The position numbers were made by a program, and so were the translations under genes. A stretch of DNA of 15,337 nt from IMG/VR virus record IMGVR_UViG_2534681673_000006, positions 1 through 15,337 of that record; one strand, given 5' to 3'. Within the stretch, counting starts at the first letter, position 1. Every line of letters starts with the position of its first letter. Positions 166 to 15,337 of the stretch are shown piece after piece. This DNA comes from a virus. Taxonomy: Duplodnaviria > Heunggongvirae > Uroviricota > Caudoviricetes. The notes below the pieces were generated by a model. The model searched no databases, was not told where the DNA came from, and was given only the letters and a program-made list of their open reading frames with translations.

Positions 166-620
166 TTTAATTAAGCAATTTTCACTGAGAAAGTGCCAAA
201 ATTCGCAAAATGACTACACCAGTGACTACACCGTTCGGTGCACTGTATGAAACAACGTGGAACAAATAGGCACAAGAAATATAAAGGCGGGTAATTTTAA
301 GGAGGCGTTGCTGTCGATATGGGGATCCCCATAACGGGGCTACCGGATTTTTTTTCCGGTTAACCTTTAATCAGCCAGGTGGGTTTTACATACCCTTGAT
401 CACCGTAATGATGATCCAGATGTGCACCTTTTCCACCAATGGAGGAAAAGCTCCAACCGTAACGATGATCGCTATGGTTGCCTCGATGGTCTGCGTGGTC
501 ATTATGACCATTCAGCCAGTGACCTTAATCAGAATTTTTCGCTAAAAAATGACGTTGGCCACGTCATCCGGAAAGCACAAAATCACGTCGATTTTTAATG
601 AACGGTTAAACCGTCTTTTT

Positions 621-655
621 GTCACGGTGTGTCACTGGTTGTCACTCTCCGTCAC
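621..655. repeat. Four GTCAC pentamers at exact 10-bp spacing (starts 621, 631, 641, 651); candidate phased protein-binding array
   Basis: Read directly: gtcacggtgt gtcactggtt gtcactctcc gtcacgattg. Preceded by near-palindrome aacggttaaaccgt (601-614). Confidence 0.5.
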
Positions 656-683
656 GATTGAGGTGGTGCTCATTCTGCCCGAC

Positions 684-915
684 CGCGCATTTTTGCGCTA
701 TCGGGAATATAAAACAGTTACCGCGCCGACTTCCTCAAATTGAGGTTTCCGAAAATATCAACTAGTTAACGATAAACTGGCGAGTAATTAAACTACGAAA
801 ATTTCGTAGTTTGTGAATATATTCCGGCCTGCTGGTTAACAGTCCTCAGATGTGAGGGATGTAGCCAGCGCAATTTTGCGTTATCGGGAATATCAAACAG
901 TTACCGCCGTCAGCT
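684..915. repeat. Two ~40-bp direct repeats (about 686-725 and 869-908, ~37/40 identical), each with a small hairpin; GTTACCGCCGT recurs at 952-962
   Basis: gcgcatttttgcgctatcgggaatataaaacagttaccgc versus gcgcaattttgcgttatcgggaatatcaaacagttaccgc. Non-coding region downstream of the packaging operon. Confidence 0.5.
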
Positions 916-952
916 ACCCAGCTCAGAATTGAGCCGCCTTTTAATCAACAAG

Positions 953-1234
953 TTACCGCCGTAACCGCTCCGGCTTCTTCCAGTGATACGTGATTTTCTC
1001 CTTCTCCCGATACAGTTCAACGCGGCGATTGTAGGCCAGCATTTCCAGAACGCGGATCCGTATGTCGCGCATATCCGCATCATTAAGCTGGATACCATCA
1101 CGGCGCATCACCTCAGCAACAACACGCGCATAATTTTCGGCTGTCACGCTGTCCGGCTGCGTGGTCTGTTCGTCAGCCTGCTGGCTGATTCCAGAGACGC
1201 GGCGGATTAATCGCAGTATTTCGGCTTCTGTCAT
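953..1234 (-). CDS. Hypothetical protein, 93 aa, immediately downstream of TerL
   Basis: ATG at 1234 preceded by GAGG-type SD 8 nt upstream; 13 nt after the terL stop. No recognisable domain. Confidence 0.5.
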   Translation of the reverse strand: MTEAEILRLIRRVSGISQQADEQTTQPDSVTAENYARVVAEVMRRDGIQLNDADMRDIRIRVLEMLAYNRRVELYREKEKITYHWKKPERLRR

Positions 1235-1247
1235 GCTGCTGACCTCA

Positions 1248-2909: not shown

Positions 2910-3249
2910 GCTCGTCCTCTTCTTCTGTTTCCGGTGGATTTTTACGGCGGCTTATCGGGTCAAAACCGAGCAAGGAGGCCATTTTTATCATCACTCTTTC
3001 AGCGTCGGATTTTGCGCTTAATGCGGGGTTTCTGCTCTCGCCGCCCTGACTGTTAACAATGCTGAACCCGCGCGCCGCAAGGTCTGCAACGGCTTTCCGG
3101 TAAATGGAGTAGTTGACACAATACAGTTCCAGATTGCTCCAGTCGGCGGGGGTCAGGTCTCCCCGTTCCGCAAGCTGCCGCGATTTTTCCCGCCACTGCT
3201 TCACGGCGATATCATCCAGGTAGGCGGGGGCTTTCGGTGGTCTTGCCAT
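2893..3249 (-). CDS. Terminase small subunit, P27 family
   Basis: 118 aa; conserved P27-family TerS pattern (KQWREK...LELYCVNYSIYRKA...NPALSA...LGFDPISRRK) with acidic C-terminus. Sits directly upstream of terL. Confidence 0.75.
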   Translation of the reverse strand: MARPPKAPAYLDDIAVKQWREKSRQLAERGDLTPADWSNLELYCVNYSIYRKAVADLAARGFSIVNSQGGESRNPALSAKSDAERVMIKMASLLGFDPISRRKNPPETEEEDELDRLE

Positions 3250-3538
3250 GCTTATTTTTTCGCCAGATTATTTTTCAAAAAATTCCCGTGCATAAAAATT
3301 TGAGGAGGCGTTCGGTGCCCGGCGGGGTCGGGTTGGTCCTGAAAACGCCCCCCACCCCGTCATACAGCCTCATCAGCGATTGCGGAAACATTCCATAACC
3401 TCGCGGTCACGGTCGGTTAATCGCTTCGCTGTGATGCGTTCTGCGCGTCCTGACGCTTTATCTTTATGCCCTGTTTCCTGTGTCTTCCATGCGTCACGCT
3501 GCCTTATAAGTCCACGGATAAGGCGGTTTTGCTCCCGC
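3250..3538. other. HNH-terS intergenic region; candidate cos site (G-rich quasi-palindrome about 3317-3359)
   Basis: 289-bp non-coding gap at the position where HK97-like cos phages carry cos, between HNH and TerS. Contains gcccggcggggtcgggttgg ... cgccccccaccccg. Positional inference only. Confidence 0.3.
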
Positions 3539-3979
3539 TCATTCATCAGCGTCATACATCCAGTTATTGCGGTTAGCGGCCCGTTCTTCCTCTTCACGAA
3601 ATCCACCTGCGGCACGCTTGCTTTTTGTTGCCGGATCAAGCCATTTCGTTTTCTGGTTATGACACGCCTGGCACAATGGTTGATGGTTCCATTCGGGCCA
3701 GAAGAGAACATCATCACCGCCATTAATCGGGATAATGTGATCCACCACCACGGCGGGCGTATATATCCCCTTCTCAAGGCATCGCACGCATAACGGGTTT
3801 TTACTCAGATACATGGCGCGGTATTTGTCCCACTGTCTGGAATATCCACGCGCGCGGCGGTGTCCTCGTCTGGCATCCTCTGCACGCCATGCCGCCCGCC
3901 TGTGCTCCTCACACTTGCCGGATTTAACGCGCCTGTTACAGCCTGGTTCTGTGCATCGTCTTAATGGTTGCCACGGCAT
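3539..3979 (-). CDS. HNH endonuclease (phage packaging-associated)
   Basis: 146 aa; Cys-rich N-terminus (CTEPGCNRRV...CEEH) and HNH core VVDHIIPINGGDDVLFWPEWNHQPLCQACHNQKT. Adjacent to terS as in HK97-type cos systems. Confidence 0.8.
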   Translation of the reverse strand: MPWQPLRRCTEPGCNRRVKSGKCEEHRRAAWRAEDARRGHRRARGYSRQWDKYRAMYLSKNPLCVRCLEKGIYTPAVVVDHIIPINGGDDVLFWPEWNHQPLCQACHNQKTKWLDPATKSKRAAGGFREEEERAANRNNWMYDADE

Positions 3980-4275
3980 CAGTACACCCCCACATCACGG
4001 TAAGCCGTCCAGAGTGCGCCTATCGTCATGGGTACGCGTGTTTTTGCGTTATCCGCGACAATCTGGCGATTTTCATACAGGTGAGCGATAAACATCATGC
4101 AGCCAATCTTTATGGCTGGCGTGAACTCCAGCCCGTCATCAAAGCGCCTGCCTATGTGTATCTGGCACGCCTCAAGCGATGCGGCAATGTATCCGCTGAT
4201 TAACTGGTCTTCATCGTCGCCATCGATGCGGCAATGGAGTTTCACTTCTTCCAGGGTGATAAGTTCTTCTGTCAT
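3979..4275 (-). CDS. Head-tail connector protein (gp6-like)
   Basis: 98 aa; N-terminus ITLEEVKLHCRIDGDDEDQLISGYIAASLEA is the gp6-like connector signature. Stop overlaps the HNH start (TGATG). Confidence 0.7.
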   Translation of the reverse strand: MTEELITLEEVKLHCRIDGDDEDQLISGYIAASLEACQIHIGRRFDDGLEFTPAIKIGCMMFIAHLYENRQIVADNAKTRVPMTIGALWTAYRDVGVY

Positions 4276-4610
4276 TTTTCCGCGCCCTCACGACAAAGAA
4301 TTTCAAGGCGTGTCCTGGCGGCATCCGGCAGCGGCTGCCCGATGATATTCAGTACACGCCCCGCCAGCGGCCCCGTACTGACCTTTATCCGACTGGTGGC
4401 GTTGATGTCCTTCCGGTACCGTATCCAGATCCTTACGGTACCAATCGCCAGCTCTGCGCCCGATGAAATGGCCTCCTTGCTGCTGATCATGTTCACGCTT
4501 GCCCAGAGTGTGTGACCGTCCTCCCACGTTTCGAGTATTTCGCCCGTCATGGCTCTGGTCTGTTTCAGGGTCTGAATCGTTATCCTGTCACGCAGTCGCC
4601 CTATGTTCAT
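4272..4610 (-). CDS. Head closure / head-tail adaptor protein (SPP1 gp16 / HK97 gp9-like)
   Basis: Start taken at ATG 4610 (MNIGRLRDRITIQ...), which overlaps the portal stop as ATGA. Size and IRYRKDI motif fit head-tail joining proteins. The ORF track's longer start at 4652 lies inside portal. Confidence 0.65.
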   Translation of the reverse strand: MNIGRLRDRITIQTLKQTRAMTGEILETWEDGHTLWASVNMISSKEAISSGAELAIGTVRIWIRYRKDINATSRIKVSTGPLAGRVLNIIGQPLPDAARTRLEILCREGAEK

Positions 4611-5818
4611 TCCGGTTTTTCTCCCTCGCTGATTTTTACTTCCTGTTTCCATGCCTGGCTGAACTCATCACCACCATCACGCGGTGACAGTCCTTCACGT
4701 TCGCGGGCTTCGTTCGGACACATAACGCCGGATTTGATGCCGCGCTCATAGGTGGCAAAGCGTTCGCCAGGTGTGGCCCGTAACAGGTCCGCGCTGTCAA
4801 ACTCCACCTGATACCGGATACCAGGTACAGGCGAGGCCACCAGCAGGGCGTTTTTTATCTGCTGCTCAAAGTTCGCCAGCCACGGGCGCATCGTCATGGT
4901 GAGAAATGCGCGGCTTGCCTCGCTGAAATTGCTGTAGGTGCTGTTGCTGTATTCCTGCAAAAAAATCGGCGAGACGTTGAACATTCGGGCGATGTCTTCA
5001 ATGGTGAAGCGACGGGAGGCCAGCCATTCAGCATCCTGATTACTCATGCCCAGCTGCTGATAGCTCATACCCCCTTCAAGGATGGGCGTTTTTCCGGCGT
5101 TTCTGGCCCCTTTGTAGCGTTCCAGTGCGGCTAATGCCTGTTTGCCCTTCACGCCGTCCAGCCATTCGCCTGACGTGATAACCCCTGCCGCCATCATGCC
5201 ATCACGCATCACGCTCGCGCCGTGGCGTTGTTGGGCCAGCCCAAGCCCCAGCGATTCGCGGCAGATGGTTACAGGTGAGCGCCCCATAAAGCCGTCATCC
5301 GTGGAGTAACGAAGGTGAAGTACTTCCCACGGTAAATAGTTGCGGGTGTTTCCGGTGTAGGCGTCAGTGATGCAGTAGCGCCAGTTGTGTTCGCCTGTCT
5401 GCTCCACGTTCACCGACTGCGGCGGGTAAGGATGTAAAGCCGCCGGAAAACCATCACGCCCCCACTGAATCACCGCATAAGCATTACCGTTTAACAGGCA
5501 GTGGCGGATCATCATTCGCTTAAACTGGTAGGGGGTTTGCCATGCGTTCGGGCGCTCGTTGAGGATGTGATCGACCGGATGAGAATCAAGCCACTCGCGG
5601 GCCTCCTTCCCCTTCTCATTGCGTACCAGGTACAGGTAACACGGCATGGTAGCCACCGCCTCAGAGATGACCGTGACGGCGTTCATGACGGCGGGCAGTG
5701 ATTCCGCTGTCCCCGATGATACGTACTCACCCGCCCCCGTGTTCGATGTGCCAGCCAGCGCCATAAATTCATCAAGCGTCATGCTGCGCTGCTCTTTTTT
5801 TCTTCTGAAAGGCCACAT
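4607..5818 (-). CDS. Portal protein, HK97 family
   Basis: 403 aa; LLNGNAYAVIQW, LHLRYSTDDGFMGRSP, GKTPILEGGMSYQQLGMSNQDAEWLASRRFTIEDIARMFNVSP match the HK97 portal family pattern. Strong GGGGGTG SD. Confidence 0.85.
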   Translation of the reverse strand: MWPFRRKKEQRSMTLDEFMALAGTSNTGAGEYVSSGTAESLPAVMNAVTVISEAVATMPCYLYLVRNEKGKEAREWLDSHPVDHILNERPNAWQTPYQFKRMMIRHCLLNGNAYAVIQWGRDGFPAALHPYPPQSVNVEQTGEHNWRYCITDAYTGNTRNYLPWEVLHLRYSTDDGFMGRSPVTICRESLGLGLAQQRHGASVMRDGMMAAGVITSGEWLDGVKGKQALAALERYKGARNAGKTPILEGGMSYQQLGMSNQDAEWLASRRFTIEDIARMFNVSPIFLQEYSNSTYSNFSEASRAFLTMTMRPWLANFEQQIKNALLVASPVPGIRYQVEFDSADLLRATPGERFATYERGIKSGVMCPNEAREREGLSPRDGGDEFSQAWKQEVKISEGEKPE

Positions 5819-5819
5819 A

Positions 5820-6392
5820 TCACACCCCCGCTAAATCCACCCACCAGCGGCGATTATCCGCACGCGGCATTTTTTCGGGGTGCTGCTCATACAGGGAACG
5901 GCGGGCCAGCTCCACGCCGGAATCAGGGTAAGCCGGAACGGATGTAACGGTAATTTCGTACAGTTCCGCCACCAGCACGGTGCGCACGCATGGATCTGTT
6001 GTGGTATCCCATACATCCTTACGGGAACGAAAGCCAAAGCTCATGCCGGATATATCACCACGTTTAACCAGTTCGATAACGTCGCGCCCTGTGCTGGTAT
6101 CCGGTGGGGTCAGTTCAAAGCGTAACCCTGTTTCGTCCTCTTCCAGTTTCAGCGTGCCGGAACGGGTACGCCCCAGTAACATGCTGTGGTCATGCTCATA
6201 CAGGCCGCGAACGTCATTACCCGCTGCAAGCCATTCAGTAAACGCTCCCCGCTGGAATTTTTCGTAAAACTCACCCCATAACAGTTCTGAAAGCTTATCC
6301 CAGCGAACAACGTAGCCCGTCAGCGTACCGGCTCCGCTGGTGGTGATTTCCGATGACCGGATTTCCATACTCTTCATAATTTTTTCACCCAT
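5820..6392 (-). CDS. Prohead protease, HK97 family (peptidase S78/U35)
   Basis: 190 aa; LTGYVVRWDK...GAFTEWL...LYEHDHSMLLGRT...ISGMSFGF...TSVPAYPDSG fits the HK97 prohead protease pattern. Start ambiguous: ATG 6392 or ATG 6377 (the latter has a GGGTG SD). Confidence 0.8.
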   Translation of the reverse strand: MGEKIMKSMEIRSSEITTSGAGTLTGYVVRWDKLSELLWGEFYEKFQRGAFTEWLAAGNDVRGLYEHDHSMLLGRTRSGTLKLEEDETGLRFELTPPDTSTGRDVIELVKRGDISGMSFGFRSRKDVWDTTTDPCVRTVLVAELYEITVTSVPAYPDSGVELARRSLYEQHPEKMPRADNRRWWVDLAGV

Positions 6393-6402
6393 AAAACACT
6401 AA

Positions 6403-6420
6403 AGGGGCTTTTAAGCCCCT
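6403..6420 (-). promoter_or_regulatory. Hairpin between capsid and protease genes; candidate partial terminator or mRNA stabiliser
   Basis: aggggctt/aagcccct inverted repeat in the 39-bp capsid-protease gap, followed on the minus strand by uaguguuuu. Read from sequence. Confidence 0.35.
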
Positions 6421-6431
6421 TCTGTATGCTG

Positions 6432-7589
6432 TTAATCGTCGTCCTGTGGCAGTTCCAGAATCTTGATCGCGTTCGAATCCACCACGCCACCGCCTAAATA
6501 TTTCTGCGTGAAAATTTTGATGAAACCCGGCTCTGTGAGGTTGTCCGGTCTGGTGCGAACACCTGTTTCGTGATCAACAATGTAGTAACCGCGTTTGAAG
6601 TCACCCAGGGCAATAACGTTATCAGGCATAAACTCCAGATATTCGACCGGAAGGCCCAGCAACGTATCAGGATCACCCGCCTGTAAACGGTCGCGCCAGA
6701 TGTAATCACCGTTCGCGTTCTTCACCTTCTGAAGTTTTGCCGCCGTCGTGGAGTTAACCACCCAGACCGCGTTTTTGCGGTATTTTTTACGTAATGCAAA
6801 TTTCAGGTCGATCAGCGGGTCCGCAGATGTCCACGCCAGAGATTCGGAAGGTTTAATTACCTGCAACGTACCAAAATCACGCTCTTTGTCGTTCTTCTCT
6901 GCACGGGGTACGGATAAAAAACCTTTTGCTTTTTTGTCACCGTCGCCCACAACCAGATCGCTTTCTTCGGTTTCCGTGAAGGTGTCGCCAATCTCACCCG
7001 TCAGCCATGAAAGGATGTCCACATCGGAAAAATCCACGATTTCCTGTGTGGTGCGCGGGTACGCATAGACCGGATACAGCTTAATGCTCACCTCGTTAAT
7101 CTGCGGGGTGCTGGTCTGTTCGCGTGTCTTACCCTCTTCACCGTGGTTAACGGTCGCACCGCCAGCGGAAACAAGCTGCTTAAACTCGTTGCTGCTGATT
7201 TTCTTCACGGTACAGATGCGGCGCATGGTGGACTCATCCGCCAGCATTCGCATGATTTCGGTGTTCAGCTCGGGGATAACGGTATAACCACCATCAGCGG
7301 GAACGCCTGTACTTAATGCGCGGGTTTCACCCGTCAGAATGTAGTTTCGTAGTTCTGCGGGGTCAGTGGTCTGACTGCTTTTACCTGGCTTGCTGCGCTC
7401 TTCGTCTGCAATGGCTTCAAGGCGGGAAATGTCTTTATCGAGGGATTCAGCTTTAGCGCGTAATTCGTCAAATTTTGCGCCCTCAGCATCGTTAAGACTG
7501 CGGTTTTCTTTTTCCGCGTTCTCCAGCATGTCACGCATCTGATTTTTAATGGCGGTTTTCTGCTGGCGTAATTCGATTATTCTCTGCAT
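6432..7589 (-). CDS. Major capsid protein, HK97 fold, with N-terminal coiled-coil delta (scaffold) domain
   Basis: Start taken at ATG 7589 (MQRIIELRQQKTAIKNQMRDMLENAEK...), a typical delta-domain N-terminus, then a ~280-aa HK97-like body. The ORF track's GTG at 7637 would run the frame through a terminator hairpin. Confidence 0.8.
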   Translation of the reverse strand: MQRIIELRQQKTAIKNQMRDMLENAEKENRSLNDAEGAKFDELRAKAESLDKDISRLEAIADEERSKPGKSSQTTDPAELRNYILTGETRALSTGVPADGGYTVIPELNTEIMRMLADESTMRRICTVKKISSNEFKQLVSAGGATVNHGEEGKTREQTSTPQINEVSIKLYPVYAYPRTTQEIVDFSDVDILSWLTGEIGDTFTETEESDLVVGDGDKKAKGFLSVPRAEKNDKERDFGTLQVIKPSESLAWTSADPLIDLKFALRKKYRKNAVWVVNSTTAAKLQKVKNANGDYIWRDRLQAGDPDTLLGLPVEYLEFMPDNVIALGDFKRGYYIVDHETGVRTRPDNLTEPGFIKIFTQKYLGGGVVDSNAIKILELPQDDD

Positions 7590-7626
7590 AAAAAAAGTCC
7601 TGGGGTTAAGTAAGGAACTCCAGGAC
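7590..7626 (-). terminator. Strong rho-independent terminator whose U-tract abuts the capsid ATG
   Basis: Minus-strand RNA: GUCCUGGAGUUCC-loop-CCCCAGGAC (11-bp stem, one G.U) followed by UUUUUUU then AUG. No SD between hairpin and start. Confidence 0.6.
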
Positions 7627-7679
7627 GCGGCAAACACTCAACCGTTTTTCATAAGGAAATCAGCAATCGCACCGATCGT

Positions 7680-7727
7680 TTTCCCGCCTGGTAATGAATA
7701 TTGGCGGGCACATTAACAGGCGGGAAA
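7680..7727. promoter_or_regulatory. Perfect 11-bp inverted repeat tttcccgcctg (26-nt spacer) caggcgggaaa upstream of the head operon
   Basis: Read from sequence at 7680-7690 and 7717-7727. Lies between the two minus-strand terminators. Confidence 0.45.
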
Positions 7728-7802
7728 GTGGCCCCAGCGTCCTGGCACCACGGGCGAGAATAATCATGATTCAGTTCGGGTAAAATATGCCGATCCGCTC
7801 AG

Positions 7803-7830
7803 TGAACAACGTGGAACAACCACGAACAAA
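7803..7830. promoter_or_regulatory. Three 10-bp phased repeats (minus strand TTGTTCGTGG TTGTTCCACG TTGTTCAC); candidate late promoter / activator site
   Basis: Plus strand gtgaacaacgtggaacaaccacgaacaaa. The 15-mer aacaacgtggaacaa (7805-7819) is identical to 251-265. A weak sigma70-like TTGTTC-16-TATTTT follows on the minus strand. Confidence 0.4.
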
Positions 7831-7837
7831 TAATTTA

Positions 7838-7870
7838 CAAAAAATAACAAAAAGCCGGATTGCTCCGGCT
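7838..7870 (-). terminator. Rho-independent terminator ending the early (replication) operon
   Basis: Hairpin agccgga-ttgc-tccggct at 7853-7870, 5 nt after the stop of the last early gene, followed on the minus strand by UUUUGUUAUUUUUU. Confidence 0.6.
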
Positions 7871-7875
7871 GTTGA

Positions 7876-8148
7876 TTAGCTGTCTGTGTAATTACGCCAT
7901 ATTTCATCGCTTACACCATCCATACCCATTTCAGCATAAGTGCGATCGACTGCCTTTCTCAGGTCTCCGAAGTTATCCGGCGGCTCCGGTGGCCTCTGTG
8001 CCTTCCTGGAACATTCCAGCCGTCGCATCGTAACCTGATGCCGTTCCTTGTCTGTCTCCACCAGTTGCATGACTTCACCCCATCGCGCCGCCGCCCTCCG
8101 GTAAAAGCCTTTTGCCTCGAGTTCCTCCGCTATGCGGTCATGTGCCAT
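7876..8148 (-). CDS. Small regulator-like protein, 90 aa, possibly PerC-family (tentative)
   Basis: Start at ATG 8148 with GAGGGGG SD, 10 nt after the SSB stop. IAEELEAKGFYRRAAARWGEVM resembles, from memory, PerC-type small activators. Last gene before the head-operon control region. Confidence 0.45.
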   Translation of the reverse strand: MAHDRIAEELEAKGFYRRAAARWGEVMQLVETDKERHQVTMRRLECSRKAQRPPEPPDNFGDLRKAVDRTYAEMGMDGVSDEIWRNYTDS

Positions 8149-8158
8149 CGTCACCCCC

Positions 8159-8569
8159 TCAGAACGGAATATCATCACCGTAAGGGTCATCGCCTCCCGC
8201 TGGTGGCTGATTACCCTGTGTGCCTGTGGCTTTGCGTCTGTTCCCGCCAGGACGTGCCGCGCGGGCACTGATTACGCTGTCCGCAATAACCTGATACCCC
8301 TGCCGTGTTTCCCCGTTCTGTCCGGTCCACTGGCTTACCTGCATCGTGCCGGATACGCTGGCAACATCGCCTTTTTGATGTTTAGCCAGGAAATCGGCCT
8401 GTTTGCCAAATGCGATAACCGATAACCATAACGTCGCCTGTCCGTCATGTGCCTGGCTGCATGGCAACGATACCGCCATACGCGCCAGAGTCATCGGTGT
8501 GCCCTTGCTGCTCTGTTTTACCAGCGGGTCGTCCACCAGCCGCCCGTAAGCTGCAATTTGTGCTGTCAT
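8159..8569 (-). CDS. ssb: Single-stranded DNA-binding protein
   Basis: 136 aa; N-terminal OB-fold pattern (IAAYGRLVDDP...WLSVIAFGKQADFLAKHQKGD...VSQWTGQNGETRQGYQVIADSV), Gly/Pro-rich linker and the canonical acidic tail DDIPF. GAGGTGG SD. Confidence 0.85.
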   Translation of the reverse strand: MTAQIAAYGRLVDDPLVKQSSKGTPMTLARMAVSLPCSQAHDGQATLWLSVIAFGKQADFLAKHQKGDVASVSGTMQVSQWTGQNGETRQGYQVIADSVISARAARPGGNRRKATGTQGNQPPAGGDDPYGDDIPF

Positions 8570-8578
8570 ATTGCCACC

Positions 8579-8884
8579 TCAGTGAAGCGATCCGGCGTTG
8601 TTCTTTTTCATCTCTTCCATCATTTTTTCAGTGAGCATTACGCACTGAAAACCCATGCTTTTGATGTCTACGGGTTTCATGCCTTTGTCTGTGGATATCA
8701 CAGGCAGAATATCCTGATACACATCGCGGTCAGGGTAACTAAGCACACAAAGCGCCCATGATGCCACGGGTGAGGATCCTTCGTCTGTTTCAACCCACCA
8801 GCCTGGTGTAGCTGCGCTTATTTGCAGAATCGTGATCCGTCCGTTGTGCTTGTAAAATTTTTCACCAAATTTTGGTTCGCTCAT
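8579..8884 (-). CDS. Hypothetical protein, 101 aa
   Basis: ATGA overlap with the upstream gene and strong GGAGAGGTGG SD. No recognisable domain. Confidence 0.55.
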   Translation of the reverse strand: MSEPKFGEKFYKHNGRITILQISAATPGWWVETDEGSSPVASWALCVLSYPDRDVYQDILPVISTDKGMKPVDIKSMGFQCVMLTEKMMEEMKKNNAGSLH

Positions 8885-9132
8885 GATTCCACCTCTCCGG
8901 TTTTAACGTTGATTGTTGTTACCTGTTCCGCTTCGGCAATCTCCCGTTCTGTCAGCGTGGCAAAGTTTGCCGCCGCTGTGGTCATGAATGCGCTTATCAG
9001 TTCGGGATGCTCCTTCGCGTATCCTTCCCCCGCGTGGCGGTCTATCGTTCTGATTGCCACCTTTAAAGCGTGCTCTGTCATGTCTAACGCTTTATATTTT
9101 GGCTGTGTTCTGTCTCTGCGTTTTTGTGTCAT
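8881..9132 (-). CDS. Hypothetical protein, ~83 aa (start uncertain)
   Basis: Start taken at ATG 9132 (GGGGAG just upstream) because the longer ORF to 9327 would run through the iteron array. ATGA-coupled to the downstream gene. Confidence 0.4.
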   Translation of the reverse strand: MTQKRRDRTQPKYKALDMTEHALKVAIRTIDRHAGEGYAKEHPELISAFMTTAAANFATLTEREIAEAEQVTTINVKTGEVES

Positions 9133-9145
9133 CTCCCCACCTATA

Positions 9146-9335
9146 CCCACTTTTACCCCCCACTTTTCACAATTCCCCATCTCGTTAAAGGCGTGGGATT
9201 TGTAATTTTTATCATGCTGTTTCATAAGGATTTTTTTGCTCCCCACTTTTTGGGATGTATACAGGTCAAAAAGTGGGGGATTGTGTTTAAATTTTGTTAA
9301 ATTCCCCATACCCACCACTTTTGCCACCCACTTTT
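9146..9335. repeat. Iteron array (CCCACTTTT, at least 6 copies, both orientations); candidate replication origin
   Basis: Copies at 9146, 9159, 9242, 9269 (inverted), 9314 and 9327, including a perfect IR ccccacttttt-17 nt-aaaaagtgggg. AT-rich spacers. Directly downstream of the replication ATPase stop (9335). Confidence 0.55.
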
Positions 9336-10318
9336 TACAGTGGCCCTACATCATCGCCGTCAACATAGATAACGCCGTCTTTTTCCAGCTTGCCCAGCCA
9401 GCGCCGGAAGTGCTTTATTTCGTACCCCAGTTTTTTCATGTCATCACGTAACAGCGGGATCGTGCACTTGTCGCCGTTCTGTGTGCGTGAACGGATACAC
9501 CCCCATAGCGCGGTATGGTTTTCCGTCTTGTTGCCTGCCTCTTCGATGCGCTCCAGTTCAACGGGAGGGCGCGGCTTATCCACCACCACCAGCGACGAGA
9601 TTAACTCCCCGTCAGCGTCGGTAAAAAGCTCCACCACCCGCAAATCATAGGCAGCCTCTTTGAGTTCCTCCGCGTCCTTCATTTTGGTGCATGAGATAAC
9701 CAGCGCTTCGCTTCCTGCGTCCTCCCTGCGTATCCGGTATTCAGCATCCAGCGAAGCACGAAATGCACTGGAACCGCGCGCGCCTTTCGTCTCATCCTTG
9801 CCGGAATGGTGAACCACCAGCACCGTGGCCCCTGTGCGTCGTTTCAGTTCGTCACAACCACGGATAAACGCCCCCATATCACGGGAATCATTTTCATCAT
9901 TCCCACCAAAGCAACGCGCCAGCGTATCCAGAATAATCATGCGTACAGGTTTACCCGTTTCCCGCTCCACCTGACGGGCAGCGATAACCATTTCATCAAC
10001 ATCAAGCGGGGCAGCCGGAAAGATGGGGCGGTTTACCAGATACAGATTTTTCACCTGCTCATCGTGCACAACCTCCCAGGCTTTTACACGACGCGGAACA
10101 CCTATACCGCCTTCACCAACCACATAGAGAACCGCACCATGTGCAACCCTGCGGCCTCCCCACTGGCGACCAGTGGCAACATGGCACGCCCACGATCCGG
10201 CAAGGAATGATTTATAGGACCCGCTAGCCCCGTATATGCTGCATAGCGATACCGCCGGAATAATCCCCTTAACCACGTAATCCAGTTGCGTGTCATATCC
10301 GGTAGATCCAACGCTCAT
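9335..10318 (-). CDS. Replication ATPase, AAA_25 / RepA-like (RecA-fold helicase or loader) with C-terminal winged-helix-like domain
   Basis: 327 aa; Walker A GASGSYKS, Walker B MIILDT, VVHHSGKDETKGARGSSAF motif typical of AAA_25 proteins. ATGA overlap with upstream gene. Confidence 0.75.
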   Translation of the reverse strand: MSVGSTGYDTQLDYVVKGIIPAVSLCSIYGASGSYKSFLAGSWACHVATGRQWGGRRVAHGAVLYVVGEGGIGVPRRVKAWEVVHDEQVKNLYLVNRPIFPAAPLDVDEMVIAARQVERETGKPVRMIILDTLARCFGGNDENDSRDMGAFIRGCDELKRRTGATVLVVHHSGKDETKGARGSSAFRASLDAEYRIRREDAGSEALVISCTKMKDAEELKEAAYDLRVVELFTDADGELISSLVVVDKPRPPVELERIEEAGNKTENHTALWGCIRSRTQNGDKCTIPLLRDDMKKLGYEIKHFRRWLGKLEKDGVIYVDGDDVGPL

Positions 10319-10734
10319 CGGTAGCGTGGTTTTTCGCTGGTGGTTTTTTCTTCCGCCGGCTCTTTCCCGCGCACCCGTTCCAGGTATTCGCGCCAGTTCT
10401 CCCGCATATGGCTGTGCATCCCTTCGGGGTAATAATTCGCATCAGTTACACCCGCCGCCGCCAGCTTGTGCGCAATGGCATTAATATTTGATGGCCTGAT
10501 GTGGCCTGCCTTGTACAGCCGGACACAATAGCGCCCCTCGTCGATGATTCTCAGGTCTGCCAGTTCATCCAGTTGATCATCAGCCAGCACAACGGGAGGC
10601 ACATTATCGCCAGCCAGTCGCCCGTCCTGTTCCTGCCACTGTTTCGCATGTGCCCAGGCATCACTACCCGCAAAAATAATGACTTCGGTCATCTTGTCGT
10701 AAGGCTGTTTTTTTAAGTTCGGTGCGCTTTTCAT
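10315..10734 (-). CDS. Hypothetical protein, 139 aa, translationally coupled to the replication ATPase
   Basis: ATGA overlaps at both ends. No recognisable domain; position suggests a replication accessory role. Confidence 0.5.
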   Translation of the reverse strand: MKSAPNLKKQPYDKMTEVIIFAGSDAWAHAKQWQEQDGRLAGDNVPPVVLADDQLDELADLRIIDEGRYCVRLYKAGHIRPSNINAIAHKLAAAGVTDANYYPEGMHSHMRENWREYLERVRGKEPAEEKTTSEKPRYR

Positions 10735-11030
10735 TTCTTGCCCCTGAATCCGTTAATCATGGTTTTCAGCTTCTGGATGTTTGCCCGTGCCCTGGCGTTG
10801 CTGGTGGGCACGTTATGCGGCGCGGTCTGTACCAGAGAAAAATCACGCCGGAACTGATAAACAGGCATCACGCAATCATATTCGTAACCTTCACGGCGGT
10901 AAGTTACGCACCGTCCCGCCACGCCCTTAATCATTACCGTGCCGCCGTACTGGTCGCGGTAAATATCACCGCGCGTAAATTTAGGGTGAGTGTTGCCACT
11001 GGCAGTTAAGCCAGAATATTTAAGTTTCAT
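10731..11030 (-). CDS. Hypothetical protein, 99 aa
   Basis: GGAGA SD 9 nt upstream of ATG 11030; ATGA-coupled downstream. No recognisable domain. Confidence 0.5.
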   Translation of the reverse strand: MKLKYSGLTASGNTHPKFTRGDIYRDQYGGTVMIKGVAGRCVTYRREGYEYDCVMPVYQFRRDFSLVQTAPHNVPTSNARARANIQKLKTMINGFRGKK

Positions 11031-11035
11031 TATTT

Positions 11036-11269
11036 TTATTCTCCGGTGTGCTGTTCGCTATATCTGTCGTGCAATGTCTCTATTTCTTGTAGTTCCATTA
11101 TTACAGGCTCAAGAAGCGTTATTAATGCCGTGACAATTCTTGATTTTTGTTTGTCGCGTTCATTGTCGCCAAGTGTTTCAAGCCATATGCGCAATATTTC
11201 CAGCATGTTTTCACTGTGAGAAAGTGCAAGAAATACGCGTTCTGTTGTTTCGTGGTAAATATCACGCAT
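11036..11269 (-). CDS. Hypothetical protein, 77 aa
   Basis: GAGGA SD; start overlaps the upstream stop by 8 nt. No recognisable domain. Confidence 0.5.
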   Translation of the reverse strand: MRDIYHETTERVFLALSHSENMLEILRIWLETLGDNERDKQKSRIVTALITLLEPVIMELQEIETLHDRYSEQHTGE

Positions 11270-11495
11270 GGCTTACATCCTCAGGAAATTTTCTTCTGTA
11301 ACGCGCCTCTGCCACATATTCCGCATAATCGGCGGCGATATTCAGTACATCAAGCCCCGTTGATTTATATTCTCTCGTGGAAAGTAAGAAAAAAGCCGCT
11401 CTAATAAGTTCTGGCATTGACGAAAGCGCATCAGCCGCATCATCAGGAACGCCGGAAAATTCTTGTTTCAGGGAATTAAAACGATCATCACGCAT
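11262..11495 (-). CDS. Hypothetical protein, ~77 aa
   Basis: Start taken at ATG 11495 (GGGGGG SD), overlapping the upstream stop by 8 nt. No recognisable domain. Confidence 0.45.
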   Translation of the reverse strand: MRDDRFNSLKQEFSGVPDDAADALSSMPELIRAAFFLLSTREYKSTGLDVLNIAADYAEYVAEARYRRKFPEDVSHA

Positions 11496-11928
11496 AACCC
11501 CCCCCATTTTCACAATCAGCAACAAGAATATTTTTAGCGTCATTCAGCGACCGCGTTGCGGTGTATCGGATACATTCCAGGGCGAATAGTGTGTATTCTT
11601 CCCTTTCTTCCTTTTGTGCAAGCTCTGCTGTGCATTCAATATCAATAAGCGCGTGCATCAGCGTAGTGAGTGCGGCGGCGGCTGCGTCCGGTGTGGTTTT
11701 ATTGCACATGTACCCCTCCGCATTTTTTTCGTTAGAAATAAGCGTTCTTCTTTCCTGTTCATCGATCAGGAATACGCAGACCTCACCGCTAAGGCGTTTA
11801 AGTAAGCCGATGATTGCCCCTGATTCGCTGTCGGTCATCATGCCTGGGTAATCCTCTGCCAGTGCGCAAATAACTTCGATTTGGTGGGCGCGTTCTGCTG
11901 CCTGTTGTAGTGTGATTTCCTGGCTCAT
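11488..11928 (-). CDS. Hypothetical protein, 146 aa
   Basis: GGGGGT SD; ATGA overlap with upstream gene. No recognisable domain. Confidence 0.5.
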   Translation of the reverse strand: MSQEITLQQAAERAHQIEVICALAEDYPGMMTDSESGAIIGLLKRLSGEVCVFLIDEQERRTLISNEKNAEGYMCNKTTPDAAAAALTTLMHALIDIECTAELAQKEEREEYTLFALECIRYTATRSLNDAKNILVADCENGGGYA

Positions 11929-12125
11929 AAGCCTACCCCCTGACGAATACGGGCGGCGAATACCATCACGCAGCCAGCCGGGGATTGCTGGCGTGCGTTC
12001 TGTTCGCTAGTGGCCTCGATGGTAATCACGCGCGGTTGTGCCGTGCTCAGGGCGATAAAACGCCAGGTGAATTTATTCAGGTTGTGCAAGTCCCGCCCTT
12101 GCGGGTGTGTGGTATGATTTCTCAT
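11925..12125 (-). CDS. Small protein, 66 aa, first gene of the leftward early operon; possibly Icd-like (tentative)
   Basis: Start at ATG 12125 with GAGGT SD. HPQGR and FAAR motifs resemble, from memory, P4-type Icd-like proteins. Downstream of the divergent operator region. Confidence 0.4.
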   Translation of the reverse strand: MRNHTTHPQGRDLHNLNKFTWRFIALSTAQPRVITIEATSEQNARQQSPAGCVMVFAARIRQGVGL

Positions 12126-12152
12126 AGCTACCTCGATACTGTTGCTATCGTT

Positions 12153-12197
12153 GGTGGTTAGACGCCCTGCATGTGTTGCGAGCACTGCGGGGCGTTG
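12153..12197. repeat. Conserved ~45-bp stem-loop element, copy A; copy B at 12943-12992
   Basis: ggttagacgccc(t/c)g(c/t)atgtgtt...cactgcggggcgttg; about 85% identical. Both copies can form a 10-bp stem with one mismatch; loops differ. Confidence 0.5.
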
Positions 12198-12223
12198 CTT
12201 AATTTGAGTGACAAAACTCAAAC

Positions 12224-12279
12224 TGTGCGCACAGATTAAAATCATATGTGCGCACAGATTAAAATCATATGTGCGCACA
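12224..12279. promoter_or_regulatory. Operator array: three copies of perfect palindrome TGTGCGCACA in 23-bp tandem repeats, in the divergent promoter region
   Basis: Palindromes at 12224-12233, 12247-12256, 12270-12279; repeat unit tgtgcgcacagattaaaatcata. A partial half-site tgtgcgcc sits at 12317-12324 near a candidate TTAACA-17-TATTGT promoter for the RHH gene. Confidence 0.55.
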
Positions 12280-12353
12280 TGTCAATACTTAACATCTCAT
12301 TTTTTTTGCTGTATTGTGTGCGCCCATAAAGTCCATTTAAGTGAGGTGCATCA

Positions 12354-12551
12354 ATGTCTAGCGGTAACACAAACAACAAATCAGCAAAGAAAAATATTCG
12401 ATTCCCACATGAGCTTATAGATGGGATTGATGCCAGCGTTGAACAAGAAAAATTAACTAATCCTAGTGCTAATTTTTCCGCATGGGTCTTAGATGCCTGT
12501 GGACGCAAATTAAAATATGAACAGCGCCGGAAGGCCAAAGAATCAGAATAA
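12354..12551 (+). CDS. Ribbon-helix-helix (CopG/Arc-like) DNA-binding protein, cassette 1
   Basis: 65 aa; GAGGTG SD 5 nt upstream. KNIRFPHELIDGIDASVEQEK...SANFSAWVLDACGRKL fits an RHH strand-helix-helix. Paralogous to the 13113-13292 protein. Confidence 0.65.
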   Translation: MSSGNTNNKSAKKNIRFPHELIDGIDASVEQEKLTNPSANFSAWVLDACGRKLKYEQRRKAKESE

Positions 12552-12600
12552 TCACTATCAGCGCCGTGGTGTGAGGTACTACGGCGCATTGCTTTACAGG
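12527..12600 (+). repeat. ~74-bp near-identical junction element (second copy 13268-13341) spanning the RHH gene 3' end and a hairpin
   Basis: aaggccaaagaatcagaataat(c/t)actatcagcgccgtgg(t/c)gtgaggtactacggcgcattgctttacagg. Stem gcgccgtgg/ctacggcgc with a GAGG-containing loop. Confidence 0.55.
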
Positions 12601-12608
12601 GCAGTAAC

Positions 12609-12836
12609 ATGACCAACAACACACTATCACCAATACAAGACACGCAAACGCAAGATGATGAAATCATCCGGCAAAGGCAGTCAGAAGCCTGCGCCAGACT
12701 TGAGGAAGAACTAACCAGAACAAAAATACCACCACCAGCGCCGCGCTTAGTTCCACCAGAAAAATTTGCCCTTGAAGATTTTGTCGATAAATACCCACGG
12801 CGGCTTAAATCCGGCAAAAACCGACCGCCAGGATGA
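12609..12836 (+). CDS. Small partner protein, cassette 1, 75 aa, unknown function
   Basis: Starts MTN; C-terminal motif FALEDFVDKYPRR is shared with the cassette-2 partner (FVLDEFLKKYSR). Proline-rich middle. No known domain. Confidence 0.5.
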   Translation: MTNNTLSPIQDTQTQDDEIIRQRQSEACARLEEELTRTKIPPPAPRLVPPEKFALEDFVDKYPRRLKSGKNRPPG

Positions 12837-12999
12837 GTGCACAAAACCGAACTATGAAACGGATTATTCCGTTTCCGGGGCGTTTGTGTGTGTATAAAGA
12901 GTAAGCTATGCTCTTTTATAGCCATAATCGTTACCTCAATTAATGGTTTGGTTAGACGCCCCGTATGTGTTCCCATCACTGCGGGGCGTTGTTGTTTTG

Positions 13000-13092
13000 G
13001 GTGTATTTCACCTTTATTTTTAAATCTACATTCAGGTGAAATACACCGCAAGACTTTTTTTATCTTTTTTTTTGCGTATACTGAAATACACC
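13000..13092. promoter_or_regulatory. Operator/promoter of cassette 2: perfect 13-bp inverted repeat ggtgtatttcacc / ggtgaaatacacc plus a third half-site overlapping a TATACT -10
   Basis: Arms at 13000-13012 and 13035-13047 (22-bp spacer); tgaaatacacc at 13082-13092 directly after TATACT (13077-13082). AGGAG SD follows. Confidence 0.55.
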
Positions 13093-13112
13093 GATTATCA
13101 GGAGAACCAGAA

Positions 13113-13292
13113 ATGGCAACAGGTGCAAAGAACGCAAAATCACAAATGACAACGGTCAGAATCCCGCATGAGGTAATGACCGATATTGAGCAACTTAAAG
13201 AACCTGGCGAAAGTACCGCCGGATTTCTAGTTACGGCAGCAAAAGGCGAGATCAAACGCCGCCAGCGCCGCAAGGCCAAAGAATCAGAATAA
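13113..13292 (+). CDS. Ribbon-helix-helix DNA-binding protein, cassette 2
   Basis: 59 aa from ATG 13113 (AGGAG SD). TTVRIPHEVMTDIEQLK...TAGFLVTAAKGEIKRRQ is paralogous to cassette 1 with divergent DNA. Shared C-terminus RRKAKESE. Confidence 0.65.
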   Translation: MATGAKNAKSQMTTVRIPHEVMTDIEQLKEPGESTAGFLVTAAKGEIKRRQRRKAKESE

Positions 13293-13349
13293 TTACTATC
13301 AGCGCCGTGGCGTGAGGTACTACGGCGCATTGCTTTACAGGTACACACA

Positions 13350-13553
13350 ATGACCAATAAAGAATCAACCAATACACCATCGCAAAAAACGAACAGAGAG
13401 CACGAAAATATGGCGCTCGAGCATGAATCAGAAAGATTCGCTCCATGCGCTTTTGTCCTTGATGAGTTTCTAAAAAAATATTCACGTTCTGAACGGATGA
13501 AAATGGCAGCACAATACGGCCCCAACAAGCAAGGTAATTGCCCACCAGCCTGA
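13350..13553 (+). CDS. Small partner protein, cassette 2, 67 aa, unknown function
   Basis: Starts MTN; same position relative to the junction hairpin as the 12609 gene; shares the F.L(E/D)(D/E)F..KY.R motif. Confidence 0.5.
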   Translation: MTNKESTNTPSQKTNREHENMALEHESERFAPCAFVLDEFLKKYSRSERMKMAAQYGPNKQGNCPPA

Positions 13554-13621
13554 TCACGGTTATCATGTTCGGGCTTATGATTGTTGACACATACGGCGCA
13601 GCGGGTTAATTGTTCAGAAAG

Positions 13622-13649
13622 GCGGTTCCATATCGGGACCGCTTTTTTT
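13622..13649 (+). terminator. Rho-independent terminator of the plus-strand RHH operon
   Basis: Stem gcggttcc/gggaccgc (8 bp, one G.U), loop atatc, followed by TTTTTTT. Confidence 0.6.
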
Positions 13650-13765
13650 ATGCCTGAAAATACCCTATAGCATGGCTTTTCAGATTCACCAGGGCGAACG
13701 AATCCCCGCCCCTGTACGGGCGTATATTTCATCATGGTTATACCTCAGTATTATGGCGTTTATTC

Positions 13766-13789
13766 CCGATACCGAGATCCCGGTATCGG
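13766..13789. promoter_or_regulatory. Perfect 9-bp inverted repeat ccgataccg-agatcc-cggtatcgg downstream of alpA
   Basis: Read from sequence. No U-tract on either strand, so more likely a protein site or an mRNA 3' stabiliser than a terminator. Confidence 0.35.
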
Positions 13790-13829
13790 TCAATAATGGA
13801 TTGGTGGTGGCTGTGTGCCGCCAGTCTTT

Positions 13830-14018
13830 TTAGTGAACTGCCTTGCAGCTATCCTTCCAGGCCAAAACCTCAGATAAAGACCAGCCAACAGAACGCCCGC
13901 CAAGTTTACGACGTGATGGGAATTGTCCGGCCTTTTCCAGGCGGTAGCGGCATGAGCGGCTAAGGCCTGTTAGCTTTTCGCATTCTTTTTCACGTATAAA
14001 CCGATCAGTGCTTAACAC
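13830..14018 (-). CDS. alpA: AlpA-family transcriptional regulator / excisionase-like HTH protein
   Basis: 62 aa; RFIREKECEKLTGLSRSCRYRLEKAGQFPSRRKLGGRSVGWSLSEVLAWK matches the AlpA/Xis-type HTH pattern. Apparent GTG start with GGGGG SD. Adjacent to integrase. Confidence 0.75.
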   Translation of the reverse strand: MLSTDRFIREKECEKLTGLSRSCRYRLEKAGQFPSRRKLGGRSVGWSLSEVLAWKDSCKAVH

Positions 14019-14179
14019 TATTGCCCCCTTTCGTTTCTTAAAGAGTTATTTCGTGTTCTATTGCGTTGGGATGTGTCTGATTGTGTCAGGATGATTCAGA
14101 GTTGGCAAATGTTGGTGTCGCATGGTTTACAGAAAGAGGAATAATCAGGATAAAATCATTTAAATTCATGTTAATACAA

Positions 14180-14209
14180 AGGCATAAAATCTTGTTTTAT
14201 GCCTTTTTT
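14180..14209. terminator. Rho-independent terminator between int and alpA, possibly bidirectional
   Basis: Stem ggcataaaa/ttttatgcc (9 bp perfect), loop tcttg. TTTTTT follows on the plus strand; the interrupted run UUUGUAUU follows on the minus strand. Confidence 0.55.
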
Positions 14210-14308
14210 CGCACGCTTTAACGCGTAATTCACTAATGTATAAAAAACCAGCTGAGCATTAAAAATCAGTAACTTACAAATCTGTATTCTTTTTGGCCTC
14301 TTGTTCGT

Positions 14309-14375
14309 GATTGTGTCACGTTGTTGCACATTGTTTCACGTTGTATCTGTGCACTTATCCAGTATGCGCATACTG
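14309..14375. promoter_or_regulatory. Four 10-bp phased repeats (consensus nnCACGTTGT) followed by perfect 16-bp palindrome CAGTATGCGCATACTG
   Basis: tcgtgattgt gtcacgttgt tgcacattgt ttcacgttgt at 14309-14352; palindrome at 14360-14375. The 10-mer gattgtgtca recurs at 14079-14088 in the alpA promoter-proximal region. Confidence 0.5.
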
Positions 14376-14392
14376 AAAAAACACGAAAAAAA

Positions 14393-15337
14393 TTATTTTA
14401 TTCTGGTTACTGGTAGCGTGGTTACGTTTTCATGTGTTCCCGCCAGTATCTCCAACCGCTCCACCCACATATCAAGCGCATTGCGTTTCGCATCAATATA
14501 GCGGGAATGGTTGTACACGCGTTGCATTCCTGGCATCTGGTGGCCTGTAAGCTGCTCCACGACGTGAGGATCAACGCCTAAATCGTTCAGCATGGTTGTA
14601 AAGGTGCGCCGGATGTCATGCAATGACCATTGAGGGTGTTTTAGCCTCCTGTGCGCTAATCTGCCGTACTGCGATACGCTAGCCTCCTGTTTCACTTCCC
14701 CCAGTAATAAGCCCGTGTGCCTGTTCTGGTCCACCAGCCGCGTGACGAACGGCAGGATCGCTTCCGGTATGGGCCGGAATATTGCAACCTTCGTTTTGCT
14801 GTGCTCCTTCGGAACGGTCCATAGCATTTCGGTAAAATCCCACTCGCTGATCTCCGATAACCTCAGTTCTACCGTCCTGGCTCCGAAGACAATCAGGAGG
14901 CGGATTAACGCGACGTAGTAAGGAGAAAATATTTTTTTATCCAGCGCCTGCAATAACTCGCCCAGTTCTTTGGTGCTTAAGACACGTTCGCTTATATCCG
15001 GTTTTTTCCCAACGTCCGCCACGTTCAGATCATCGAGAACGTTGCTGATTGCAAAGCGCCGCCTCCGGCAGAACTTAAGCGCCTGCTTGCATGTCTGTAG
15101 CACGAATCCGGCAGTAACAGGTGTTCGCTTTGCCACCTGGTCAAAACAGGCCAGCCAGTGCCGTAGCTCGCATTTATCCAGCGGCATAGCGCCAATGTAC
15201 TGTATTACGTGATTATTAAGTCGCCTTTTCAGGGCGATATAATCCACGCGGTTTTCCTTTACGTACGACTCAAGCCAGTAGGTGAGCGCATCGCCAACCG
15301 TTACCGGCTTTAACGCTTCCTGTACGGCGTAATTCAT
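14393..15337 (-). CDS. int: Tyrosine site-specific integrase (phage integrase family)
   Basis: 314 aa; core-binding-like N-terminus and catalytic C-terminus with R...HDIRRTF...GHQMPGMQRVYNHSRY (R-H-R-Y signature). ATG sits at the last three bases of the window, so any N-terminal extension cannot be assessed. Confidence 0.85.
   Translation of the reverse strand: MNYAVQEALKPVTVGDALTYWLESYVKENRVDYIALKRRLNNHVIQYIGAMPLDKCELRHWLACFDQVAKRTPVTAGFVLQTCKQALKFCRRRRFAISNVLDDLNVADVGKKPDISERVLSTKELGELLQALDKKIFSPYYVALIRLLIVFGARTVELRLSEISEWDFTEMLWTVPKEHSKTKVAIFRPIPEAILPFVTRLVDQNRHTGLLLGEVKQEASVSQYGRLAHRRLKHPQWSLHDIRRTFTTMLNDLGVDPHVVEQLTGHQMPGMQRVYNHSRYIDAKRNALDMWVERLEILAGTHENVTTLPVTRIK

Follow-up and report, generated by a model that had tools for sequence, protein, structure and literature searches.

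Background

Why do short repeats with an exact 10-bp period recur at widely separated places in one small satellite, and which protein reads them? The window considered here, a 15,337-nucleotide stretch of viral DNA (IMG/VR record IMGVR_UViG_2534681673_000006, positions 1 to 15,337), raises this question. Its initial annotation had listed four phased arrays of one motif family and had ascribed them to a single AlpA/Vis-type protein acting at att and at promoters. Here we report arrays of a TTGT-type unit in the attL arm, around alpA and ahead of the capsid operon, and we propose, at a probability of roughly 0.6, that they are binding arrays for AlpA, which would serve both as the excision directionality factor and as a regulator of alpA and the capsid operon. 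Array position, phasing, significance, conservation and covariation, as well as the family membership of AlpA, were computed in this study; that AlpA is needed for PICI excision and activates PalpA is taken from the literature. That AlpA occupies the arrays, and which way each regulatory effect runs, are what we infer.

Recombination directionality factors (RDFs) bind cooperatively and head-to-tail on direct repeats spaced by one helix turn and bend the DNA, and for Apl, Cox and Vis the sites of action include promoters as well as att (PMC7498355). The AlpA of PICIs switches on its own promoter, PalpA, and its expression triggers excision and replication (PMC6092414); excision of EcCIMP1 requires AlpA (PMC11773190), and induction and transfer of EcCIEDL933 need alpA (10.1101/2022.09.08.507074). 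In PICMIs, AlpA, which resembles TorI and Xis, is sufficient for excision and leaves transcription unchanged (PMC10803314), and in EcCICFT073 the activity of Pint is not changed by AlpA (PMC6092414). The open-access text of the PICI and cf-PICI papers reports no AlpA binding or operator sites; the Shewanella CP4So paper has H-NS as its subject, not AlpA sites. A map of predicted AlpA operators in this satellite family, with AlpA arrays separated from integrase doublets, appears to be new; the cf-PICI element and the array logic of a dual-function RDF are of kinds already known.

The element and its relatives

Judged by gene content and order, the window element is an EcCIEDL933-like capsid-forming PICI (cf-PICI), a phage satellite in E. 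coli tqsA. Positions 1-144 are the 5' end of tqsA and are followed by an island of 15.5 kb, every long gene of which lies on the minus strand. The element, about 15 kb with its own att site, carries int, alpA, a replication gene and genes for capsid, protease, portal, connectors, HNH, TerS and TerL; tail and lysis genes are absent. The tyrosine integrase gene (14393-15337, minus strand), which is cut by the end of the window, encodes a P4-type arm-binding N-domain; the full protein has 409 aa in L001 and L002, two complete relatives whose int-alpA region is 99-100% identical to that of the window. alpA (13830-14018, minus strand) encodes a 62-aa RDF-family winged-helix protein, the proposed binder of the arrays. 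Small plus-strand YnfO-like genes lie between alpA and the early operon, which has the order icd-like, DUF4222, RepA-type helicase, SSB and PerC and is followed by a terminator. The packaging operon is ordered HK97-type capsid, protease, portal, head completion, connector, HNH, TerS and TerL. These assignments come from the window's own annotation and the RefSeq annotation of near-identical elements. A 497-aa ORF at 12242-13735, a candidate primase gene, proved spurious; relatives annotate small plus-strand YnfO-like genes there.

The same order is found in EcCIEDL933, the cf-PICI prototype: int, alpA, icd-like, DUF4222, repA, ssb, perC and capsid, and onward through protease, portal, connectors, HNH, terS and terL. 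EcCIEDL933 lies between phoQ and roxA, whereas the window copy is in tqsA and differs in the type of its integrase N-domain and of its arm doublet. An O157:H7 copy (L003), also situated between phoQ and roxA, is about 95% identical over most of the window. A related int-alpA module occurs in about 1000 of 5426 complete genomes, and a query with AlpA found 3 loci in species-representative genomes. In L001 (8716-20100) the int-alpA-att module, again 99-100% identical, is carried on a smaller island whose replicon (primase) and whose capsid and decoration module both differ; compared with the window, it shows modular exchange at the boundaries proximal to alpA and to attL.

An internal duplication of about 740-790 bp (12522-12619 / 13263-13360, and also 12155-12197 / 12949-12991) gave two copies of the plus-strand YnfO-like/hypothetical gene pair between alpA and the early operon. 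The last gene of that operon (7876-8268) encodes a PerC-family activator (Pch-like; PF06069, E=7e-44), a possible link of the satellite to LEE virulence regulation. An Rfam scan of the whole window gave 0 matches.

Phased TTGT arrays

Three arrays consist of 3-5 direct head-to-tail units in exact 10-bp phase. Array A (14301-14350, plus strand) has five units of the TTGTnnCACG type (TTGTTCGTGA TTGTGTCACG TTGTTGCACA TTGTTTCACG TTGTATCTGT), array B (7800-7840, minus strand) has four (TTGTAAATTAT TTGTTCGTGG TTGTTCCACG TTGTTCACTG), and array C (246-275, minus strand), in the attL arm, has three (TTGTGCCTAT TTGTTCCACG TTGTTTCATA). The initial annotation had counted four copies at 14309-14352 and three at 7803-7830; both arrays are present, with a fifth and a fourth unit respectively, and the exact phasing held wherever it had been reported. 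The 15-mer that it described as common to 249-268 and 7805-7819 is likewise there: arrays B and C share AACAACGTGGAACAA, at 251 and 7805. A weaker array, E (14048-14090, plus strand), comprises ATGTGTCTGA TTGTGTCAGG and two degenerate units and lies over the putative -10/start region of alpA.

Comparison of motif counts with a shuffled control, which had been suggested along with the original claim, excludes chance: the strict pattern TTGT-N6-TTGT-N6-TTGT occurs 5 times in the window against a mean of 0.004 in 1000 dinucleotide shuffles, none of which reached 5. When one mismatch is allowed, there are 7 matches against 0.10 expected. The strict triple has no match in the 26.3-kb chromosomal flank of L001, and in L001, L007, L009 and L010 all strict matches fall within the island. 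An exact scan of IMG/VR with the 15-mer returned mostly chance matches; the exceptions were contigs with two matches about 7.4-7.6 kb apart, which is the spacing of arrays C and B.

A 10-bp weight matrix was trained on att-arm units only (array C and the two attR arrays of L002) and used to scan the window for three phased units, with 300 sequences as the null. Array A scored 33.7 (14311-14340), array B 26.7 (7800-7829) and array E 21.0 (14071-14100), against a null with a mean of 11.6, a 99th percentile of 19.2 and a maximum of 21.0, which array E equals. The att-trained matrix recovers A, B and E alone in 15 kb, upstream of alpA and of the capsid operon. Arrays A, B and C, together with E, form one motif family.

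The fourth locus of the original claim is of another kind. Array F (617-655, plus strand) has GTCAC in four copies with a 10-bp period, at 621, 631, 641 and 651, just as had been noted for 621-655, and phased runs of three and of four GTCAC occurred in 0 of 1000 dinucleotide shuffles. Its matrix score of 9.5 is below the null mean of 11.6, so that three of the loci (A at 33.7, B at 26.7, and C as part of the training set) make up a single family, from which the fourth stands apart as a repeat of its own. The weight matrix rules it out as a member of the TTGT family, and the proposal that it is an AlpA-family site fails with this difference in motif and with its tie to another module. In the window and in L003 (2983-3023) array F lies a few bases beyond the stop codon of the conserved last gene (93 aa, phrog_1561), and an unrelated satellite at yejO (L018, 3512-3560) has a five-unit GTCAC array downstream of the phrog_1561 stop. 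It is absent from L010, and its region has no similarity to phage cos regions in the phage collection. Its core, GTCACT, resembles lambda-type integrase arm sites.

The att arms

The att core overlap, TGCTGTTAT (129-137, 9 bp), lies in tqsA at the left junction, as defined against the attR junction of L001. Further in, at 210-232 (plus strand), there is a tandem 12-bp doublet, (A)TGACTACACC AGTGACTACACC, made of two copies of GTGACTACACC and reading GGTGTAGTCACT GGTGTAGTCAC on the int strand; we predict that these are integrase arm-type sites. Array C stands 13 bp from the doublet, within the att arm and beside the integrase sites. A second copy of the GTGACTACACC doublet is present in the attR arm of L001 and L002, and each att arm can be described as a 10-bp array, a 13-bp spacer and a tandem 12-bp doublet, both composites having the same orientation. 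The attR arrays, D1 and D2, are situated between the start codon of int and the attR core, just past the end of the window, and are present in attR of L001, L002 and nine other relatives. D1 has the units TTGTTCCAGC TTGTTTCACG TTGTAGCCCT TTGTGCAACG; D2 is a weaker set nearer the core, over a promoter-like site for int.

This arrangement has a counterpart in P4, which like the window element is a satellite with a P4-type integrase and 12-bp arm doublets flanking the core. The P4 record (NC_001609) annotates a 12-bp "attP arm sequence repeat" as tandem doublets that flank the core on either side and are directly oriented, one of them 16 bp from the int start, and the window doublets have the same layout. 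Directly upstream of its int-proximal doublet P4 has a period-10 run (TTCCG, GTCCG, ATCCG) comparable to the arrays described here. The two differ in motif, nTCCG in P4 as against TTGTTyCACG in the window, and in distribution: the window has arrays on both arms and before the capsid operon, whereas P4 has no capsid operon. P4 Vis (ORF88) is an excisionase and a regulator of the late promoter PLL. By analogy, we infer that the P4 Vis sites and the window arrays may be equivalent.

The alpA control region

Array A lies in the spacer that separates the int stop codon from alpA, at 283-332 bp before the start codon of the latter, and is kept as 5-6 units in the diverged relatives L003, L008 and L011-L014 though single bases differ. 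In array E, a GACACAATCnGACACA block is conserved in relatives with type-a AlpA (defined below). The consensus scan gave a putative alpA promoter at 14080-14108 (minus strand; TTGCCA, 17-nt spacer, TG-CACAAT) whose two hexamers are conserved in the type-a relatives; no other promoter-like site for alpA is conserved. Arrays A and E flank this promoter together with a conserved hairpin. The hairpin (14179-14209), GC-poor with flanking A/T runs, lies between array A and the promoter and is conserved in relatives; read from the sequence, it is terminator-like on the plus strand, and on the minus strand it is a possible int terminator, although the terminator scan of the window did not include it among its calls.

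Array A is about 200 bp upstream of the putative alpA -35, with the hairpin intervening. Arrays A and E stand in inverted orientation to alpA; B and D point toward their genes. The overlap of array E with the putative alpA -10 would predict repression, against the published positive autoregulation; with one array so placed, the sign of alpA regulation cannot be read from sequence.

The initial annotation had also drawn attention to a 16-bp palindrome beside array A. It is indeed perfect (CAGTATGCGCATACTG, 14360-14375) and adjoins the array. As an operator, it was dropped: it is specific to the sublineage of the window, L012, L013 and L014 and is replaced by array-like sequence in L003, L008 and L011. 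The palindrome is probably incidental.

The early (icd-repA) promoter has no TTGT array and has palindromic operators instead. A perfect 23-bp tandem repeat (2.4 copies) at 12224-12300, in the YnfO-like/icd-like divergent region, contains TGTGCGCACA palindromes, three in all, that cover a consensus TTGACA -35 and the sequence immediately after it. This segment looks like a repressor-controlled early promoter that does without AlpA-type arrays, and the early operon appears, from its promoter sequence, to be controlled differently from the operons that have them.

Array B and the capsid operon

Array B is found directly after the perC terminator, an intrinsic terminator at 7853-7870 (minus strand) that ends the early (icd...repA...ssb-perC) operon. 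It lies 211-251 bp upstream of the capsid ATG and reads toward the capsid operon. When the capsid-upstream spacers of the window and L010 are compared, array B is the best-conserved block, with TTTTGTAAATTATTTGTTCGTG identical and the flanks diverged. By eye, the last unit of the array could serve as a weak -35 (TTGTTC, 16 nt, TATTTT); the promoter scan did not call TTGTTC/TATTTT at array B. By location alone, the occurrence of the same motif at the promoter regions of alpA and the capsid operon is that of a dual-function RDF.

The leader between array B and the capsid start contains a 17-bp inverted repeat (7680-7727; 94% complementary, 14-nt loop) that is conserved in L003 and partly in L010.

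Covariation of arrays and doublets with their candidate proteins

In 11 related islands we compared the 12-bp doublets and the 10-bp units with two protein segments: the N-terminal stretch of Int that varies among these relatives, and the helix-turn-helix segment of AlpA, assumed to hold the recognition helix. The window, L002 and L014 combine a type I Int segment (SVKYLTSGK) and the GTGACTACACC doublet with type-a AlpA (RSCRYR) and a mixed TTGTTyCACG unit. The same AlpA type and mixed unit are found in L003, L008 and L011-L013 together with a type II Int segment (SVRHSTSGL) and the doublet TTAACTACACC; the AlpA helix is RSCRYR in L003, L008, L011 and L013 and RTCRYR in L012. In L009, L015 and L016, a type II Int segment (SVRHST(S/N)GL) with TTAACTACACC / TTGACTACACC is accompanied by type-b AlpA (RTTRYE) and the unit TTGTTCG; in L009 all eight listed units contain GTTCG, five of them as exact TTGTTCG. 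L010 has a type III Int segment (EIKHSKGGK), the doublet CTGACCACAC, type-c AlpA (RTTRYE) and the unit TTGTTCG.

The doublet tracks the Int N-domain type and the 10-bp unit appears to track the AlpA type, and the two groupings are discordant: type II Int is paired with a type-a array in L003 and with a type-b array in L009. Recognition of the doublets by integrase and of the arrays by AlpA would lead one to expect such discordance. These comparisons cover few independent lineages (one clade each for types a and b, and a single element for type c), and the covariation is not strict, as TTGTTCG units occur in type-a arrays too; L012, with nearly type-a AlpA, has an extra TTGTTCG x3 array before an accessory gene. 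When L009 (type b) and L010 (type c) were scanned whole, both had arrays at both att arms and upstream of alpA, and L010, a cf-PICI, also had one upstream of the capsid operon.

Which protein reads the arrays

The element encodes a small winged-helix protein of an RDF family, AlpA (PF05930, E=5e-18; phrog_2790, "excisionase and transcriptional regulator"; AlpA-family match to PDB 8c3t), which is 47% identical to P4 Vis. The earlier proposal of one AlpA/Vis-type protein at att and at promoters is partly supported and is the best supported of the readings compared. The same motif is found at attL, in the int-alpA spacer, over the putative alpA promoter, in the conserved block upstream of the capsid operon and in attR of relatives; it appears to vary with the AlpA type and not with the Int N-domain or the replication module; and the proposal is consistent with the likeness to Vis and with the published roles of AlpA in excision and at PalpA. 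Where it extended to the GTCAC array and the palindrome, it is not borne out.

Other RDFs offer both likenesses and differences. 186 Apl and P2 Cox use, at promoters as well as at att, 5-7 direct repeats that are spaced 10-11 bp apart, much like the window arrays (PMC7498355); they are of another protein lineage and repress lytic and lysogenic promoters, whereas AlpA is reported as an activator. TorI of KplE1 (CPS-53), a small Xis-like winged-helix RDF used with IntS, binds GTTCG-type sites 2 nt apart beside the PintS -35, with five sites that include a block of three 2 nt apart, and PintS is repressed by both TorI and IntS (PMC2951348). The TorI core, GTTCG/GTCCG, resembles the TTGTTCG units of the window family; TorI sites are described on attL only, and TorI has no known role at structural-gene promoters. 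In P4, Pint is repressed by Vis and by Int (PMC7286903). Against the AlpA reading, arrays on both att arms are unusual for RDFs.

It is unlikely, though the alternative deserves weight, that a protein other than AlpA binds the arrays, be it the RDF or regulator of a helper phage (at A and E), another conserved island protein or a host factor. Some 150 bp ahead of vis, P4 has three direct repeats of 10 bp (CTTTAAGTGG), which we take to be Cox boxes, and P2 Cox reportedly uses 10-bp boxes in front of vis to activate P4. The island encodes several small conserved proteins that carry no functional assignment, published work names no helper signal for alpA induction (PMC6092414, PMC11773190), and cross-talk between PICI and helper excisionases has been reported (PMC11773190). 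Yet the motif sits in both att arms by the integrase sites, where the island's own RDF is expected; it changes, in the islands compared, with the AlpA helix-turn-helix segment; and AlpA alone suffices for excision in related systems (PMC6092414, PMC10803314). By analogy with P4, a helper Xis/AlpA-like factor might bind A and E and start alpA transcription, with AlpA then taking over those sites, a scheme to which we would give long odds; if true, the long-sought induction signal of Gram-negative PICIs and cf-PICIs would be identified. It is very unlikely that the 10-bp arrays are arm-type sites for the N-terminal domain of Int. They do lie in both att arms, and the lambda arm sites P'1-P'3 are contiguous with roughly 10-bp spacing, but a separate 12-bp doublet holds the position of the P4 arm repeat and co-varies with the Int N-domain, which the arrays do not, and arrays also occur at alpA (14048-14350) and at the capsid operon (7800-7840), far from att. 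Arm sites of the P4 family should be confined to the att arms and vary with the Int N-domain; the doublets behave in this way and the arrays do not, and the arm-site reading of the arrays was rejected in favour of the doublets.

Two further explanations have scarcely any probability in our estimate. If the arrays were iterons of a replication origin, they should be tied to, and co-vary with, a replication initiator gene. They resemble the type I iterons of P4 (TGTTCACC) superficially, in that the unit TTGTTCACTG contains TGTTCAC, and P4 has two iteron clusters lying apart, ori and crr, both of which its alpha protein requires. L001, a primase-type replicon, and L002, a RepA-helicase replicon, nevertheless have identical arrays A, C and D, and arrays that stay unchanged with another replication module are not origin iterons. 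In primase-type relatives true TGTTCACC iterons lie just downstream of the primase gene, apart from the arrays, and the window has its own repeats downstream of repA (9151-9336); the iteron reading was rejected on the independence of the arrays from replicon type and on the presence of TGTTCACC iterons elsewhere. Nor do we give more credence to the arrays being simple sequence or remnants without function. That each array is small would fit, but not the shuffle statistics, the retention of architecture while bases diverge, or the recurrence of arrays at equivalent loci in the other AlpA types examined.

A proposed model for AlpA at the arrays

If AlpA is the occupant, its monomers would line up head-to-tail on the arrays, one per helical turn, as short filaments that bend the DNA. 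At C, D1 and D2 it would help integrase to build the excisive complex, and it would probably also affect the int promoter, which overlaps D2. On array B it would sit at the upstream edge of the capsid-operon promoter, and on arrays A and E it would flank the alpA promoter. One switch could in this way couple excision, alpA autoregulation and the expression of capsid and packaging genes.

AlpA has been called the master regulator of Gram-negative PICIs, and the map predicted here places its sites at the att arms, the alpA region and the capsid-operon promoter, alongside the integrase doublets. If confirmed, this map would explain how a 62-aa protein couples excision to the production of satellite capsids, would make AlpA regulons predictable in hundreds of E. 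coli islands, and would provide defined DNA targets for asking how helper phages trigger induction.

Replication region and other repeats

Downstream of the RepA helicase gene, the segment 9134-9336 has three copies of TTTTGCnCCCCACTTTTT spaced 83-85 bp and an inverted repeat at 9241-9278, and is by its sequence a likely replication origin. In relatives of the primase type, the TGTTCACC iterons are at 11301-11332 and 11444-11459 in L010 and at 11645-11660 and 11774-11789 in L009, where they form direct and inverted pairs directly after the primase gene, as in P4 crr/ori.

In the RepA helicase region itself (9335-10734) the protein is split between two ORFs, of 139 aa and 327 aa, that overlap. 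L002 has one RepA of 470 aa, with which the C-terminal part shares 97% identity; the first 120 residues, in another frame, are only 44% identical to the L002 protein, and their DNA resembles the N-terminus of the L001 primase. On this evidence the split is either a frameshift or a mosaic junction.

Near the 3' end of the last gene there is a 40-nt direct repeat, 93% identical and spaced 183 bp (685-724 and 868-907), with a partial match (start GCGCAATTTTGCGCT and an end in ...GTTACCGCCGTAA) in the stretch of L003 that was read.
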